A stretch of 64,000 bases of DNA from Solirubrobacteraceae bacterium (GCA_036273655.1 DASUHF010000035.1:3232-67231); one strand, 5' to 3'. Positions 24,776 to 32,591 are shown, counted from the stretch's first letter. Numbers and translations: made by a program. Notes: generated by a model not told the origin, from the letters alone.

Positions 24776-25585
24776 TTGCTGAGAGCCGTCGCCGATCGAA
24801 CCTTCTCGCCGACCAGATCGGCGCTGGAGGAGGTCGGCAACATGGTCATCCTGACGGGACGCACGATCGTCTCAGCGGTGCGGCCCCCGTACCCGTACGG
24901 CCCGGAGTTCGTCGGTCAATTCCTGTTCGCGATGCGGCTGTGCTGGTTTCCGCTGCTGATCTCGACGATCGCGTTCGGCTACGAGGCGCCGGGGCTGCAG
25001 GGCGCGAACTTCCTCGTGCTGTTCGGCGCGATCGACCGGCTCGGCGGCTTCTTCGTGCTGTCGTCGGTACGCGAGTTCGCCCCGTTCGTGGACGCGATCG
25101 TGCTGGCCGGCGTCGCCGGCACGGCGATCACCGCCGACCTCGGCGCGCGCAAGATCCGTGAGGAGCTCGAGGCGCTACAGGTGCTCGGCGTCGACCCGGT
25201 CAAGAACCTCGTCGTGCCGCGCTTTCTAGCGCTGATGCTGCTGACCGGCCTGTTCGACGTGTACGCGCTGATCTTCGGCGTGATCGGCGGGATCGCGGCG
25301 ACGCTCGTCAACCACGCGCCGCTGGGGCCGTTCTTCGCGACGTTCTTCAACAACGCCGAGACCACGGATTTGTGGGGCTCGGTCGTGAAGACGACGCTGT
25401 TCGGGGCGATCATCGCGATCGTCTGCTGCTACAAGGGCATGACCGCGTCCGGCGGGGCCGAGGGCGTGGGCCGCGCCGTCAACCAGGCGGTCGTGATCGC
25501 GTTCCTCGGCGTGTTCGCGTTCAACTACGCGTTCACCCAGACGCTGCTGGCCACCCACCCGCAGATCACCACGATCGTCAAGTGA
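24776..25585 (+). CDS. MlaE/YrbE-family ABC permease (YrbEA-like)
   Basis: FVLSSVREFAPFVDAIVLAGVAGTAITADLGARKIREELEALQVLGVDPVKNLVVPRFLA is the MlaE signature. TTG at 24776 is preceded by a GGGAGGAG SD. Confidence 0.85.
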   Translation: MLRAVADRTFSPTRSALEEVGNMVILTGRTIVSAVRPPYPYGPEFVGQFLFAMRLCWFPLLISTIAFGYEAPGLQGANFLVLFGAIDRLGGFFVLSSVREFAPFVDAIVLAGVAGTAITADLGARKIREELEALQVLGVDPVKNLVVPRFLALMLLTGLFDVYALIFGVIGGIAATLVNHAPLGPFFATFFNNAETTDLWGSVVKTTLFGAIIAIVCCYKGMTASGGAEGVGRAVNQAVVIAFLGVFAFNYAFTQTLLATHPQITTIVK

Positions 25586-25589
25586 CCAC

Positions 25590-26387
25590 GTGAACGAGCT
25601 GATCGCGACACCCCGGGGCTGGATCGAATCGTTCGGCGAGATGACGAAGTTCGCCGGTCGCATGATCGGCGACGTCGTCTCGCTGCGCGTGTTCAAGTTC
25701 TTCGGCGAGGCGCTGCGGCAGGCCGGGATCCTGATCGTCTCCTCGACGCTCGTGATCTTCGGGCTCGTGTTCATCATCGGCCTGGAGTGCGGGATCGAGG
25801 GCGGCTACTTCACCTACGGCGAGGGGACGCCGGCGTACTCGGGCGTGTTCGCCGCGTGGTGTGACCTGCGCGAGCTGGTCCCGCTCGTGTTCGGCTACAT
25901 GATGGCCGCCAAGGTCGGCACCGGGATCGTCGCCGAGCTCGGCTCGATGCGGATTTCCGACGAGATCGACGCGCTCGAGGTGATGGGCATCAGCGGCATG
26001 CGGTTCCTCTGCGCGACGCGGCTGCTGGCGGCGATGATGGTGCTGCCGTTCGTCTACCTGTGCTCGATCGGCGCGGGCTTCTTCGCCTCCTATCTGGCGG
26101 TCGTGCAGCAGCTCGGATACGTCTCCTCGGGCGGCTTCTTATTGATCTTCTGGCAGTTCCAGAACCCGACCGATGTCTTATTCAGCTTGATAAAGGCGAT
26201 GGCGATGGCGTTCGTCATCGTCATCGTTGGCTGCTACTACGGCTACAACGCCAGTGGCGGCCCCGTCGGCGTGGGCACGGCCACGGCCAAGTCGATGGTC
26301 GTCAACCTCGTCTCGGTCCACCTGATCGGGATGCTCGGCACGCAGCTGTTCTGGGGGGCCAACCCGCGCGCGCCGATCGGCGGATGA
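25590..26387 (+). CDS. MlaE/YrbE-family ABC permease (YrbEB-like)
   Basis: MAAKVGTGIVAELGSMRISDEIDALEVMGISGMRFLCATRLLA is the paralogous MlaE signature. Confidence 0.85.
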   Translation: MNELIATPRGWIESFGEMTKFAGRMIGDVVSLRVFKFFGEALRQAGILIVSSTLVIFGLVFIIGLECGIEGGYFTYGEGTPAYSGVFAAWCDLRELVPLVFGYMMAAKVGTGIVAELGSMRISDEIDALEVMGISGMRFLCATRLLAAMMVLPFVYLCSIGAGFFASYLAVVQQLGYVSSGGFLLIFWQFQNPTDVLFSLIKAMAMAFVIVIVGCYYGYNASGGPVGVGTATAKSMVVNLVSVHLIGMLGTQLFWGANPRAPIGG

Positions 26388-26425
26388 CCAGGCCCGACGG
26401 TCTAGATTCCAGGGCGGAGGTACTG

Positions 26426-27451
26426 ATGCGACACGACGACGACGAGCAGGTGAACAAGGATCAGACATCGCCCGACGGGGGCGAGCCGTCGCCGCTGAAC
26501 CTCGTGCCCAAGCGGGCCGACGACGGCCGCAGCGTCGCTCGCGCGGAGCGCGGGGGCTCACGTGTGTCTGTCGTCGACGAGGCGCCGCCGCGCCCGGCGC
26601 CGCCCGACGGCGTCACGCCCGACGAGTACCGCTGGCACACCTACAAGGTCTATCCGTCGGGCCGCCCCGACGCGGTCGAGTTCGTCGACACCTACAAGTC
26701 GTTCGGGCGCTCGCACATCCTGCGGGGGCTGAACATGGGCCTCCCGGAGGGGATGGTGTCGATGATCCTGGGGCCGTCGGGCACGGGCAAGTCGGTCTGC
26801 ATCAAGCACATGGTCGGGCTGCTGTATCCCGACCGCGGCGACGTCCTCGTCCACGGCCAGTCGGTGCCGAACATGCGCGACGACGACCTGTTCGAGATGC
26901 GCAAGAAGTTTGGCCTGTTGTTCCAGGACGGCGCGCTGTTCGGCTCGATGAACCTGTTCGACAACGTCGCGTTCCCGCTGCGCCAGCACACCGAGAAGGG
27001 CGAGGACGAGATCGAGGAGACGGTCATGCGCCGGCTCAACGAGGTCGGCCTCGGCACCGCCCGCACCAAGATGCCCAACGAGCTCTCCGGCGGGATGCGC
27101 AAGCGCGCCGGGTTCGCGCGGGCACTCGTGCTCGAGCCCGACATCCTGTTGTTCGACGAGCCCGACTCGGGCCTGGATCCGGTCCGCACCGCGCTGCTGG
27201 GCGAGCTGATCCTGGAGATCCACCGCGACATGATGGACGAGGCCAAGGCTAAGCAGAAGGAGCATCTGCCGACGTTCTGCGTGATCACCCACGACATCAT
27301 GAGCGCGCGCCGTGTCGCCGACTACATCAACGTCCTCTGGAAGGGCCGGGTGGTCGAGGCCGGGCCGGCCGAGGACATGCTCAACTCCGAGAACCCGTTC
27401 ATCCGCCAGTTCCTATCCGGGGAGTCCGAGGGCCCGCTGACGATGGACTAG
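26426..27451 (+). CDS. MlaF/Mkl-type ABC ATPase with an N-terminal extension of about 95 aa
   Basis: GPSGTGKSV (Walker A), LSGGMRKRAGFARAL, LLFDEPDSGLDP. GGAGG SD before the ATG at 26426. Confidence 0.88.
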   Translation: MRHDDDEQVNKDQTSPDGGEPSPLNLVPKRADDGRSVARAERGGSRVSVVDEAPPRPAPPDGVTPDEYRWHTYKVYPSGRPDAVEFVDTYKSFGRSHILRGLNMGLPEGMVSMILGPSGTGKSVCIKHMVGLLYPDRGDVLVHGQSVPNMRDDDLFEMRKKFGLLFQDGALFGSMNLFDNVAFPLRQHTEKGEDEIEETVMRRLNEVGLGTARTKMPNELSGGMRKRAGFARALVLEPDILLFDEPDSGLDPVRTALLGELILEIHRDMMDEAKAKQKEHLPTFCVITHDIMSARRVADYINVLWKGRVVEAGPAEDMLNSENPFIRQFLSGESEGPLTMD

Positions 27452-31644: not shown

Positions 31645-31659
31645 TAGGGTCGGCTCGAG

Positions 31660-32184
31660 ATGGGAGCCGAGCTGCTGACGGCCGCTGGGACGGGCTCGCG
31701 GCTGACGCGACCCGGGCCGGCCGCGGAGGCGGCCGCCAGGCGGACGCTGCGGACCCAGATCGCGTCGCTGGAGGCGGAGCTCGCCGAGGCGTTCGTGACC
31801 GCGTTCGAGATGCGGCTCGATCGCGCCGGCGATGTCGCTGCCGCCGCCGTCCCTGGTCCGCGGTTGCTCGATCTCGGCGAGCTCGAGCAGGTGCGCGACG
31901 AGCTCGCCGGTCGCCTGCGTGAGCTGCGGCTGCGGATCAGCGCGGGAGCCGAGCTTCAGGCGCGCAAGCGCGAGCTGCTGGCCCAGATGCAGCTCGAGCC
32001 CGGCCGGCACCGGTTCACCCGGATCTCGTGTCGCGAGCTCGGCGAGCCCGGGTGCGGGGTGTGGCAGGTCCGCCCGCGGCTGGGACCGGTTGGCATGCTG
32101 ATGGGGTGGTGGCAGGTCACGCTCTCATCGGGCTGTCCGTTAGCCGTGGGCCGGCGGCGGCACGCGGCGCCGTCACGGCCCTGA
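31660..32184 (+). CDS. hypothetical protein (coiled-coil N-terminal half, Cys-containing C-terminal half)
   Basis: 174-aa ORF with good GC3 bias, co-directional with the operon. I recognise no family. Confidence 0.55.
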   Translation: MGAELLTAAGTGSRLTRPGPAAEAAARRTLRTQIASLEAELAEAFVTAFEMRLDRAGDVAAAAVPGPRLLDLGELEQVRDELAGRLRELRLRISAGAELQARKRELLAQMQLEPGRHRFTRISCRELGEPGCGVWQVRPRLGPVGMLMGWWQVTLSSGCPLAVGRRRHAAPSRP

Positions 32185-32207
32185 TCGAGCCGCATGAGAG
32201 CTGACCG

Positions 32208-32591
32208 GTGCGACGGCTGCTGAGGACCGGCGCCGGAGCGGTGCTCGTGATCGCGATCATGGTGATCGGATCGATCGTGCTGTGGGCCGGGACGCCGCTT
32301 GCGTGGCTGTGGGTCGGCGCTCAGATCCAGGGCGCGACGCAGTCGTTGGGGACGGCGCTGGTGGCGGCGTTCGCAGGCGTGATCGTCTCGGTCCTGCTGC
32401 TCGCGTCGCTGCTGGCAAGGCTCAGCGACCTGTACCGCGCCAACCGCGTCGCGCGGGGGCTCGACGATCCGGGGCACGTGATGCTCGAGGGCGTCCTCGT
32501 CGTCAGCGCCGGGATCTCGCTGGCGGCATTCACGATCTGGTTCTTCTTGTTCGCGGGCGCCGCGCCCGCGCCGGTCGGCATCCAGATCTGA
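32208..32591 (+). CDS. hypothetical membrane protein (3-4 TM)
   Basis: 127 aa with hydrophobic segments VLVIAIMVIGSIVLWAG, ALVAAFAGVIVSVLLLASLL and ISLAAFTIWFFLFAG. Confidence 0.6.
   Translation: MRRLLRTGAGAVLVIAIMVIGSIVLWAGTPLAWLWVGAQIQGATQSLGTALVAAFAGVIVSVLLLASLLARLSDLYRANRVARGLDDPGHVMLEGVLVVSAGISLAAFTIWFFLFAGAAPAPVGIQI

Follow-up and report, generated by a model that had tools for sequence, protein, structure and literature searches.

In Mce and Mla systems, MlaE/YrbE permeases are encoded beside proteins with an MCE/MlaD domain (PF02470). The parts of one system need not come from one place: in mycobacteria, MceG is encoded at a separate locus and shared, and an orphaned Mce1A (oMce1A) joins the Mce1 complex (PMC9882608). 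In the class Thermoleophilia, three complete genomes listed carry 12–56 MlaD homologues per genome, and a fragmentary Conexibacter draft carries 4; the host group is monoderm (PMC10665443).

Here we analyzed an operon within a 64,000-nucleotide stretch of DNA (the window) from a soil actinobacterium of the Solirubrobacteraceae, in which a YrbE permease pair and its ATPase are followed by an RND-superfamily transporter gene. The literature searched yielded no description of an RND gene within an Mce operon. The original prediction, made from this DNA, took the transporter to occupy the place of mceA-F and suggested a new hybrid lipid-trafficking machine. Our results point instead to a known system in derived form, not to a newly invented hybrid machine.

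Organization and Conservation of the Operon

The ORF list, junction sequences, and a third-position-GC gene call define eight co-directional genes (g1–g8) at 24776–32591 on the + strand, with spacers of at most 23 nt or 4-nt overlaps. GGGAGGAG lies immediately 5′ of g1. The genes, with the basis of each assignment, are:

up212, 23959..24597, − strand: predicted lipoprotein gene, divergent from g1
g1, 24776..25585, + strand: yrbEA-type MlaE-family permease, 269 aa (Pfam MlaE, PDB)
g2, 25590..26387, + strand: yrbEB-type MlaE-family permease, 265 aa (Pfam MlaE)
g3, 26384..27451, + strand: MceG/MlaF-type ABC ATPase, 355 aa (NCBIfam, PDB)
g4, 27474..30302, + strand: RND-superfamily transporter, MMPL-domain, HAE3-like, 942 aa (Pfam, NCBIfam)
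g5, 30299..30994, + strand: membrane-anchored thioredoxin-fold protein, 231 aa (AhpC/TSA and ResA models)
g6, 30991..31644, + strand: cytoplasmic B3/B4-like domain protein, 217 aa (orthologue profile)
g7, 31660..32184, + strand: helical two-cysteine protein, 174 aa (orthologue alignment, AF2)
g8, 32208..32591, + strand: small integral membrane protein, 127 aa, the last gene of the operon (hydropathy)

The successive spacers are 4, −4 (ATGA), 22, −4 (ATGA), −4 (ATGA), 15, and 23 nt, exactly as originally stated, and the eight-gene list and tight operon were borne out. A consensus scan of the operon region revealed no excess of terminator-like sites over shuffled sequence, and no such site at the g3–g4 junction.

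Of the 75 informative loci in 80 related Solirubrobacterales genomes, sampled at species level, 74 preserve the ATPase–RND adjacency. The layout is therefore not a chance juxtaposition: the adjacency of yrbE, mkl, and mmpL, whose possible uniqueness to this genome had been raised as an objection, is widespread, and the association with the RND gene that had been predicted is non-accidental. Synteny also extends to clearly unrelated flanking genes (oxoamine synthase and glutamine synthetase III), and conservation of adjacency by itself therefore counts for little. The open frames are uninterrupted in about 75 species, start/stop codon overlaps have been maintained, and soil metatranscriptome contigs cover yrbEA, yrbEB, and mceG.

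The ABC Proteins

Both g1 and g2 match the MlaE family (PF02405; 1.1e-54 and 4.3e-53, respectively) and are paralogues with 27% identity, making up a YrbEA/YrbEB pair of the actinobacterial kind. The closest PDB entry to g1 is M. smegmatis YrbE1A (8fed_I, 7e-35). Within the order, g2 is 61% identical to YrbEB of ATPase-less mce operons and 50% identical to YrbEB of complete ones.

The top NCBIfam model for g3 is MlaF (3e-60, under the equivalog cut-off, alignment from aa 98), and the protein aligns from aa 102 with MceG (8fed_G, 4e-74), which places it among MlaF/MceG-type ATPases; it is 62% identical to MceG of complete Solirubrobacterales mce operons. Its start overlaps the g2 stop (ATGA). 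With the ABC domain beginning at aa ~98–102, an N-terminal extension of ~95–97 aa precedes it, in agreement with the ~95 aa predicted; the extension exists provided that translation begins at the ATG at 26384. It is poorly conserved and varies in length, conservation in relatives beginning at about aa 55–60, and the g2–g3 spacer in relatives reaches up to ~1 kb.

Identity is 84–96% for g1 among the 80 genome loci and 79–97% for g2 in related genomes. Over the 80 species, g1, g2, and g3 together show 79–97%, compared with 46–69% for the RND protein. At matched divergence of a neighbour gene, the conservation of g1–g3 equals that in MCE-containing lineages.

The RND Transporter and Accessory Proteins

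The Pfam MMPL domain matches g4 in two halves (6.6e-44), and the sterol-sensing domain matches it at 1.5e-10. Hydropathy analysis gives a TM segment (17–35), a loop (36–316), and a bundle (317–469), followed by a second TM segment (560–578), loop (579–762), and bundle (763–908). These two TM-loop-bundle repeats, together with the two-stretch MMPL match, place g4 in the RND superfamily, and by RND topology both large loops are extracytoplasmic. The top NCBIfam model is HAE3 (TIGR00921, 3e-91, aa 250–909), but the score of 306.7 bits is below the family cut-off of 351.9; on this profile similarity we name g4 HAE3-like. With the MMPL family model TIGR00833 it reaches 140 bits where the cut-off demands 874.7, and likeness to solved MmpL4/5 is limited to the TM region at aa ~713–921 (2e-11), which rejects a bona fide MmpL (HAE2). 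The TM region also matches HpnN (7e-7). Of the predicted MMPL lipid exporter, the MMPL domain and RND topology thus stand, but the protein is HAE3-like and not a true MmpL.

The start of g5 overlaps the g4 stop. Its product matches the AhpC/TSA (8e-7) and ResA (7e-7) models, its profile finds TlpA/ResA-like proteins in the PDB (2e-10), and hydropathy predicts a single TM segment (aa 44–62); the protein probably faces outwards. Despite the thioredoxin-fold likeness, it lacks the CxxC active site of ResA/TlpA thiol-disulfide oxidoreductases. Of 33 orthologues, 32 have another residue in place of the first active-site cysteine, giving S/AxxC, and at that position the window copy shows a gap of 3 residues.

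A profile of 32 orthologues relates g6 to the B3/B4 domain of PheT (4p71_A, PheT aa 233–330, 2.5e-5), while the single sequence has no Pfam match at E < 0.1. The gene is dispensable, since it is missing from some relatives; g6 and g7 are jointly missing from six loci (L006, L051, L056, L060, L061, and L064). In an alignment of 31 g7 orthologues, the C-terminal motif GEPGCG...VRPRLGLIGMLMGWWxVKLSSGCPL is invariant. The protein has no relative in Pfam or the PDB and no predicted TM segment, and a low-confidence AF2 model shows two long helices. Homologues of g7 also lie directly 3′ of solitary yrbEA-yrbEB pairs (L004, L118, L125, L137, L142, and L148). The g8 product has three hydrophobic segments, is 52–86% identical among relatives, and is found in most of them, those without g6 and g7 included; it has no significant family match in Pfam or NCBIfam.

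Upstream, up212 encodes a beta-rich protein with a ..LAASGC.. lipobox. It matches no Pfam family, no PDB entry, and none of the MCE probes; its single-sequence AF2 model (pLDDT 39) is too poor for use. An orthologue lies 5′ of yrbEA in nearly all loci, and up212 serves as a marker for orthology of the locus, whether or not a relative has MCE genes there.

Absence of MCE Genes in cis

PF02470 gave zero matches among g1–g8, their neighbours, and those ORFs of the window that could not be recognized by eye; about 12 other window ORFs, identified by eye, were covered by six-frame probe searches instead of Pfam. When validated MCE probes from E. coli and M. tuberculosis were run against the six-frame ORFs of the window and 84 related loci, 1.57 Mb altogether, no significant match resulted, and searches of the same loci with 18 Solirubrobacterales Mce proteins (phmmer) or 11 sister-lineage Mce proteins (tblastn) were equally negative. 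No MCE remnants were found in the window or in L001–L084, and no MCE domain lies within 10 kb of a window-type operon in the 80 related genomes. The window permeases are thus not accompanied by an MCE/MlaD-domain protein in cis, as had been predicted, and none of the unassigned ORFs is a hidden one.

MCE Genes in Sister-Lineage Loci

A different picture emerged from 21 loci on soil-metagenome contigs, whose g1, g2, and g3 counterparts are 79–83%, 72–79%, and 71–75% identical to those of the window. In all 21, up212 lies upstream and MCE genes follow directly behind mceG; six mce genes are present wherever the contig extends far enough, and they exceed the PF02470 cut-off. The order is that of a divergent lipoprotein gene, then yrbEA-yrbEB-mceG-mceA..F-RND. 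In L111, L127, L157, and L158, the N terminus of an RND protein homologous to g4 (E 1e-9 to 1e-33) begins −4 to ~67 nt past the sixth mce gene, overlapping mceF in L111. Across lineages whose RND proteins are only ~36–45% identical, the RND junctions span −4 to ~190 nt.

Position by position, the Mce proteins of these loci are nearest to MceA-F of sister clade C (30–37%) and farther from clade B. Since Mce relationships mirror YrbE relationships, they were inherited vertically. On sequence comparison, the window operon can be shown to be orthologous to these MCE-containing loci and to descend from a six-mce-gene locus. Because the sister loci hold mceA-F between mceG and the RND gene, the window form corresponds to a clean deletion of mceA-F, and since the RND gene already stands behind mceF there, its link to the operon predates MCE loss.

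In a neighbour-joining tree of YrbEA, YrbEB, and MceG, the main MCE-less clade is monophyletic (87–92% support), and a second MCE-less group is supported at 100%. They join in 0 of 200 bootstraps, and MCE-containing lineages lie between them. Loss of mceA-F apparently happened more than once, in two lineages or more, the number being uncertain because the tree backbone is weak (23–55% support) and neighbour-joining was the only method.

Mce Parts Elsewhere in Solirubrobacterales

The order contains complete mceG-yrbEAB-mceA-F operons, solitary yrbEAB pairs, and, in Solirubrobacteraceae, yrbEAB-mceA-F operons with no MlaF-type ATPase within 10 kb (4 of 4 contexts). In the window-type clade itself, yrbEAB pairs occur with neither ATPase nor RND gene (L004 and further loci). 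In Patulibacter americanus and Thermoleophilum album, MlaD homologues number 12 against 2 for MlaE, and related genera have mce sextets away from any MlaE gene (PMC10665443, supplementary file 3).

Possible Roles of the Operon

We consider the window operon to be, probably, a derived Mce operon that has lost mceA-F and whose intact engine works in trans with mce modules encoded elsewhere, alongside a long-associated RND exporter. The ancestral layout, still found in sister lineages, would have been a divergent lipoprotein gene and yrbEA-yrbEB-mceG-mceA-mceB-mceC-mceD-mceE-mceF-RND, presumably followed by the accessory genes of the window. A clean six-gene deletion in the window lineage would then have brought the RND gene to 22 nt behind mceG. 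In the cytoplasmic membrane, YrbEA, YrbEB, and MceG would continue to make up a functional ABC engine of the Mce type and, because Mce parts are scattered across the order, would most likely act in trans. By analogy with the unlinked mycobacterial MceG that serves Mce1–4, the g3 product would power ATPase-less mce operons, and MCE hexamers from other loci may dock on the YrbEAB pair. Together with the thioredoxin-fold protein and the small membrane protein, the RND transporter would be a proton-driven exporter of a hydrophobic substrate, co-expressed with the Mce system since before mceA-F were lost; plausibly, the former exports and the latter re-imports a single envelope lipid, rather than the RND protein physically standing in for the MCE ring. 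That the sister loci carry mceA-F plus the same RND gene speaks against the RND protein having taken the functional place of mceA-F. What survives of the hybrid machine are the MCE-less state and the conserved RND link; a purpose-built machine finds only partial support, the operon being the sister-lineage form minus a block.

Trans use accounts for the retention of MceG but less well for that of YrbEAB, and the MceG encoded within complete clade-B operons could itself serve the ATPase-less operons. That precisely yrbEAB-mceG-RND is repeatedly kept once MCE genes are lost would also be expected if the ABC proteins cooperated directly with the RND transporter. They would then act without MCE proteins, extracting or flipping lipids in a cell with one membrane, in a two-engine lipid-trafficking unit in which RND and accessory proteins are coupled physically or by hand-over and ATP is combined with the proton-motive force. 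Several observations suit such a unit: 74 of 75 genomes preserve the gene order, its junctions being short or overlapping; the MCE-less arrangement appears to have arisen at least twice; and permease constraint was not relaxed after MCE loss. The RND gene was already in the Mce operon before the loss, overlapping mceF in L111, which makes a functional link to the ABC engine plausible; and the hosts are monoderm (PMC10665443), which leaves no obvious need for a tunnel across the envelope. On the other side, the synteny includes unrelated flanking genes, yrbEAB pairs of the same clade do without ATPase or RND (L004 and others), and the RND protein evolves much faster than the ABC parts (46–69% versus 79–97% identity), a difference that gives no hint of a tight, co-evolving complex. 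We know of no MlaE/YrbE permease shown to work without MCE partners. With many MCE genes elsewhere in Solirubrobacterales, partnering in trans is at least as likely as an MCE-independent function, and we regard direct ABC-RND cooperation as rather unlikely.

The difference in evolutionary rates between the two modules would also fit mere neighbours, an RND cassette (g4, g5, and g8, with or without g6 and g7) and an Mce engine that accidentally share a transcript and handle different substrates. Modules in this region are indeed freely shuffled (g6 and g7 are variable, g7 accompanies solitary yrbEAB pairs, and mceA-F were deleted), and the entire region is syntenic, unrelated genes included. 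We nevertheless find this improbable: the RND gene lies directly downstream of Mce genes in both MCE-containing and MCE-less forms, the junctions stay within −4 to ~190 nt over lineages with RND proteins only ~36–45% identical, and terminator-like sites are no commoner than in shuffled sequence and absent from the g3–g4 junction. The missing MCE partners in cis and the reduced versions of the locus in some relatives (L004) could suggest a relic, with yrbEAB-mceG functionless and heading for pseudogenization. Such decay is very improbable and already contradicted by the conservation data: frames are intact in about 75 species, protein identity is 79–97%, constraint is unrelaxed, start/stop overlaps are preserved, and matching transcripts occur in soil metatranscriptomes.

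Comparison with Known Systems

The window operon shares with mycobacterial Mce1/Mce4 (8FED/8FEE) a heterodimeric permease pair, YrbE1A and MceG being the closest solved relatives of g1 and g3, and its sister-lineage orthologues share the six MCE genes in A–F order. Assembly of components from separate loci is known there for MceG and oMce1A (PMC9882608). Unlike the mycobacterial systems, the window operon has no MCE gene; its ATPase is encoded in the operon, behind the permeases, and has an N-terminal extension; RND, thioredoxin-fold, B3/B4-like, and two-cysteine genes take the positions of Mce-associated genes; and the host is a monoderm member of Thermoleophilia, not a mycolate diderm (PMC10665443). 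M. tuberculosis MceG (Mkl, Rv0655), unlinked and shared, is a close relative of g3 and likewise stands apart from ATPase-less mce operons, but g3 does not stand alone, lying between its own YrbEAB pair and an RND gene, and sharing of g3 would be by analogy.

E. coli MlaFEDB also combines an MlaE-family permease with an MlaF-type ATPase. The window operon lacks MlaD, MlaB, MlaC, and MlaA, has a permease heterodimer in place of a homodimer, and resembles MlaFEDB less than it does actinobacterial Mce parts. With HAE3/MMPL-type exporters such as HpnN, BstA, and MmpL3/4/5, g4 shares two MMPL halves, a sterol-sensing-like TM bundle, and two outward loops, and it weakly matches HpnN (a hopanoid transporter), BstA (a sterol transporter), and MmpL4/5. 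It differs from them in falling under every curated family cut-off and in sitting in an Mce operon, and its partner is a thioredoxin-fold protein, not one of MmpS type.

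Gene Content of the Operon

Genes in the 64-kb window (~70% G+C) were called from third-position G+C content, an ORF list, and the junction sequences. The original prediction had described eight co-directional genes with short or overlapping junctions, and this description agreed exactly with our gene calls and junction sequences. In order, the spacers measure 4, −4, 22, −4, −4, 15, and 23 nt, with an ATGA overlap at three junctions.

Genes of the operon (window coordinates, strand, assignment)
g1, 24776–25585 (+): yrbEA, MlaE-family permease (Pfam, 1e-54)
g2, 25590–26387 (+): yrbEB, MlaE-family permease (Pfam, 4e-53)
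g3, 26384–27451 (+): mceG, MlaF/MceG-type ATPase (NCBIfam MlaF, 3e-60; PDB MceG, 4e-74)
g4, 27474–30302 (+): RND protein, 942 aa (Pfam: two MMPL-domain halves and a sterol-sensing-like bundle)
g5, 30299–30994 (+): single transmembrane helix followed by a ResA/TlpA-like thioredoxin fold
g6, 30991–31644 (+): B3/B4-like protein, at the profile level
g7, 31660–32184 (+): helical protein with an invariant two-cysteine C-terminal motif
g8, 32208–32591 (+): protein with three hydrophobic segments

Among solved structures, M. smegmatis YrbE1A is the best match to g1. The ABC domain of g3 starts near residue 98–102. The distance from yrbEB to the conserved part of the ATPase varies by species from ~60 nt to ~1 kb (window 26384–26680; in related loci L026 and L069, between 10798 and ~11800) and is open in the ATPase frame in most loci, an open frame being weak evidence in G+C-rich DNA; this suggests that the N-terminal extension is long, low in complexity, and variable in length. 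The top curated model for g4 is HAE3, not MMPL, with a score under both cut-offs; its resemblance to MmpL4/5 and HpnN is weak, and its hydropathy profile indicates classical RND topology. In g5, the motif is S/AxxC instead of CxxC. No relatives of g7 were identified by Pfam or by comparing an orthologue profile with PDB sequences. A scan for consensus promoters and terminators returned counts at chance level and was therefore uninformative.

Several other genes of the window were annotated along the way.

Other genes of the window
7493–9856 (+): fusion of a GT4 glycosyltransferase and a lysylphosphatidylglycerol-synthase-type transmembrane region (Pfam)
11290–14889 (−): 1199-aa protein, which we take by eye only to be a methionine synthase
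20465–22612 (−): type III glutamine synthetase
32652–33029 (−): 125-aa protein, Pfam-negative
33487–34752 (−): alpha-oxoamine synthase-type aminotransferase (Pfam Aminotran_1_2, 1.5e-49), presumably of the KBL/BioF/serine-palmitoyltransferase class
34774–36161 (+): two overlapping putative ORFs of 141 and 321 aa, Arg/Pro/Ala-rich, Pfam-negative
42012–44376 (−): MoxR-like AAA ATPase and VWA/CoxE protein
45808–46974 (−): ArsA-type ATPase
47012–52524 (−): possible exopolysaccharide cluster

The glutamine synthetase, methionine synthase-like, MoxR/VWA, and ArsA genes are ordinary housekeeping or context genes. The possible exopolysaccharide cluster includes a D-glucuronyl C5-epimerase-like protein, an 822-aa family-2 glycosyltransferase, and a secreted CBM5/12 protein with a weak GH18 match. 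Counterparts of both overlapping ORFs are called as genes (109 and 310 aa) in L002, the closest relative.

Search for MCE Proteins in cis

Pfam found no PF02470 domain in g1–g8, in the genes on either side, or in those window ORFs that had no other identification. As probes we used E. coli MlaD and M. tuberculosis Mce1A, whose sequences were verified as PF02470 proteins; neither had a significant match among the six-frame ORFs of the window and 84 related loci (1.57 Mb). The same was true of 18 Mce proteins from Solirubrobacterales searched against this set, and tblastn with 11 Mce proteins of the closest MCE-containing lineage gave no significant match. No MCE remnants were found in the window or in its close relatives. 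A cryptic MCE protein among g5, g6, g7, g8, and up212 (the divergent predicted lipoprotein gene upstream of g1) was ruled out by Pfam, by orthologue profiles compared with PDB sequences, and by the MCE probes. Single-sequence AlphaFold2 models of up212 and g7 (pLDDT 39 and 54, respectively) were too poor for a fold search.

Conservation of the Operon in Related Genomes

The nearest protein matches come from uncultured Solirubrobacteraceae, and every named relative is a metagenome-assembled genome. An exact protein match was obtained from a single 2.5-kb metagenome contig, and a search of sequencing runs yielded soil metagenomes exclusively. Carriers of the window-type operon include two complete metagenome-assembled chromosomes (OY969768.1, locus L031; OY970167.1, locus L061). 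A scan with one genome per species gave 80 loci with g2 identities of 79–91%. Among the 75 loci with a contig that extends beyond the ATPase gene, 74 have the RND gene directly after it, at a distance of −4 to ~300 nt (mostly 3–100 nt), and g5 and g8 come next in most loci extending that far; g6 and g7 are jointly absent from six. Synteny includes the flanks, with the divergent lipoprotein gene upstream and the 125-aa protein and the alpha-oxoamine synthase downstream, so adjacency by itself is no proof of coupling. Most related loci have the 125-aa gene (42–81% identity) right behind g8, in the opposite orientation; in most relatives extending that far, the oxoamine synthase (66–91% identity) is the second gene past the operon. 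YrbEA, YrbEB, and MceG are 79–97% identical, versus 46–69% for the RND protein.

In three metagenome-assembled genomes (L028, L048, and L064) the RND match is broken across reading frames. Since the oxoamine synthase match of L048 is also truncated, assembly errors are more likely than pseudogenes. One genome (L004, the same as L042) has the permease pair followed by a g7 homologue only. The g7 family (window 31660–32184; L004 10801–11295; also L118, L125, L137, L142, and L148) combines a helical N-terminal part with an invariant GEPGCG...GWWxVKLSSGCP motif. Its members also occur directly 3' of solitary yrbEA-yrbEB pairs lacking ATPase, MCE, and RND genes, and a g7-like gene lies upstream of yrbEA in L110 and L120. 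The g7 protein could be a cytoplasmic partner of YrbE permeases not described so far.

Sister-Lineage Loci Carry mceA-F between mceG and the RND Gene

When metagenomes were searched with P0121, an intermediate representative sharing 68% identity with g2, 80 soil loci were obtained; comparison with the window proteins and Mce probes served to annotate them. In 21 of them, g1–g3 orthologues (g1, 79–83%; g2, 72–79%; g3, 71–75% identity to the window) are preceded by the same divergent lipoprotein gene and followed by MCE genes. The window arrangement was seen in nine loci, a permease pair followed by g7 or g8 in six, and a permease pair followed by unrelated genes in nine; the rest are interrupted by contig ends. 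The intervening genes of the MCE-containing loci pass the PF02470 cut-off of Pfam, the distance from mceG to mceA is −4 to ~135 nt, and all six mce genes are present wherever the contig is long enough. In all four loci that extend further (L111, L127, L157, and L158), the sixth mce gene is followed, after −4 to ~67 nt, by an RND N terminus with homology to g4. The sister operon therefore reads yrbEA-yrbEB-mceG-mceA..F-RND, and the window operon is this operon minus its six-gene mceA-F block. We conclude that the window locus arose from an Mce-RND operon through deletion of mceA-F and that the RND gene was part of the operon before mceA-F were lost.

Other Mce Modules in Solirubrobacterales

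Using diverse g2 representatives as new queries, we found two YrbE clades (B and C) besides that of the window (A). Clade B, carried by a Solirubrobacteraceae metagenome-assembled genome and by Patulibacter minatonensis, is a complete operon comprising a 168-aa protein, mceG, yrbEA, yrbEB, and mceA-F; its MceG is 62% identical to g3. Clade C has the order yrbEA-yrbEB-mceA-F, and no MlaF-type ATPase lies within 10 kb in any of four contexts. Clade A shares the most identity with clade C (YrbEA, 64%; YrbEB, 61%) and less with clade B (52–54% and 50%). A distant window-type lineage outside the order was also considered and rejected, its representatives (41–47% identity) being about equidistant from all three Solirubrobacterales clades. 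In P. minatonensis (L087), a g6-like B3/B4 protein (5397–6047, −; 33% identity over 221 aa) is encoded ~2 kb upstream of the complete clade B operon, a hint at B3/B4-like proteins as recurrent neighbors of Mce loci in Solirubrobacterales.

According to a published survey (PMC10665443), monoderm Solirubrobacterales and Thermoleophilales have "multiple copies of MlaDE homologues" without a known function. Its supplementary table lists 12 MlaD versus 2 MlaE proteins in Patulibacter americanus, the two sets on separate contigs, as well as 12 versus 2 in Thermoleophilum album and 56 versus 14 in Conexibacter sp. Seoho-28. There is evidence that Mce parts are dispersed in Thermoleophilia genomes as engines, permease pairs, and, according to that table, MCE sextets.

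Direction and Number of Losses

Position by position, the sister-lineage Mce proteins are closest to clade C MceA-F (30–37% identity, versus 26–33% to clade B). These similarities mirror the YrbE relationships and so favor vertical inheritance, not recent acquisition. To our knowledge, every other known member of this transporter family has MCE partners, which makes the MCE-less state the derived one. In neighbor-joining trees of concatenated YrbEA, YrbEB, and MceG, the main MCE-less clade, including the window, is monophyletic (support 87–92%), and a second MCE-less group (L120, L153, L154, and L164) has 100% support. The two were joined in none of 200 replicates and are separated by MCE-containing lineages. 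The trees, built by a simple method and with a weak backbone, suggest at least two independent deletions of mceA-F.

The Remaining ABC Engine Is under Constraint

When compared at equal divergence of the neighboring lipoprotein gene, the MCE-less clade and MCE-containing lineages conserve YrbEA, YrbEB, and MceG to the same degree. Reading frames and start-stop overlaps are intact. Short soil metatranscriptome contigs (≥90% identity) cover yrbEA, yrbEB, and mceG but leave the RND gene uncovered, as expected from its faster evolution and from mapping across species; the difference in depth reflects conservation, not expression. None of these contigs spans the g3-g4 junction. Taken together, conservation, intact frames, and transcript cover indicate that the engine genes are functional and not relics. 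We conclude that the ABC engine was kept under constraint after the deletion of mceA-F.

Discussion

Mce and Mla systems are the principal known route for lipids and sterols across bacterial envelopes, and MCE proteins are regarded as obligatory partners of MlaE/YrbE permeases. The loci described here add an Mce operon type with a built-in RND transporter and provide a natural experiment in which six MCE genes have gone, on apparently more than one occasion, with the ABC engine remaining under full selective constraint. In the literature searched, we found neither an Mce operon described as having an RND gene as an integral part nor a case of MCE gene loss with YrbEAB-MceG kept, and nothing on MCE-less YrbE or Mce-RND operons besides PMC10665443, whose MlaDE observation in monoderm actinobacteria ("function unknown") gains a concrete genomic framework.

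The original prediction proposed an MCE-less hybrid lipid machine. In a bolder version of this idea, YrbEA, YrbEB, and MceG would operate without any MCE protein, cooperating directly with the RND protein and with thioredoxin-fold and small membrane partners as a lipid-trafficking unit driven by ATP and protons, which would have evolved at least twice in single-membrane bacteria when an Mce-RND operon lost its MCE tunnel by deletion. That precisely these genes were retained recurrently, with the RND gene tightly linked, speaks for such a unit, but it would be without known precedent, the ABC and RND modules evolve at discordant rates, permease pairs of the same clade exist without ATPase or RND, and MCE genes are plentiful in the order. 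We consider it unlikely.

In our preferred reading, the engine still works as an ABC core of the Mce type, and its partners are most likely encoded at other loci. The same family contains complete mce operons, others that lack an ATPase, and permease pairs on their own; MCE hexamers may dock in trans on the YrbEAB pair. For the RND cassette, the probable role is proton-driven export of a related hydrophobic substrate, in co-expression with the importer. Whether a YrbE/MceG engine is active without MCE proteins or Mce modules mix in trans becomes testable at this locus, and the question of whether YrbE/MlaE permeases need MCE proteins is now answerable by genome scans and simple genetics.

Mycobacteria offer the closest parallels. 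Clade C mce operons resemble those of M. tuberculosis, which likewise have no ATPase nearby, and in mycobacteria an orphaned Mce1A enters the Mce1 complex (PMC9882608). By analogy, MceG of the window operon would energize ATPase-less mce operons, much as the unlinked mycobacterial MceG does for several Mce systems.
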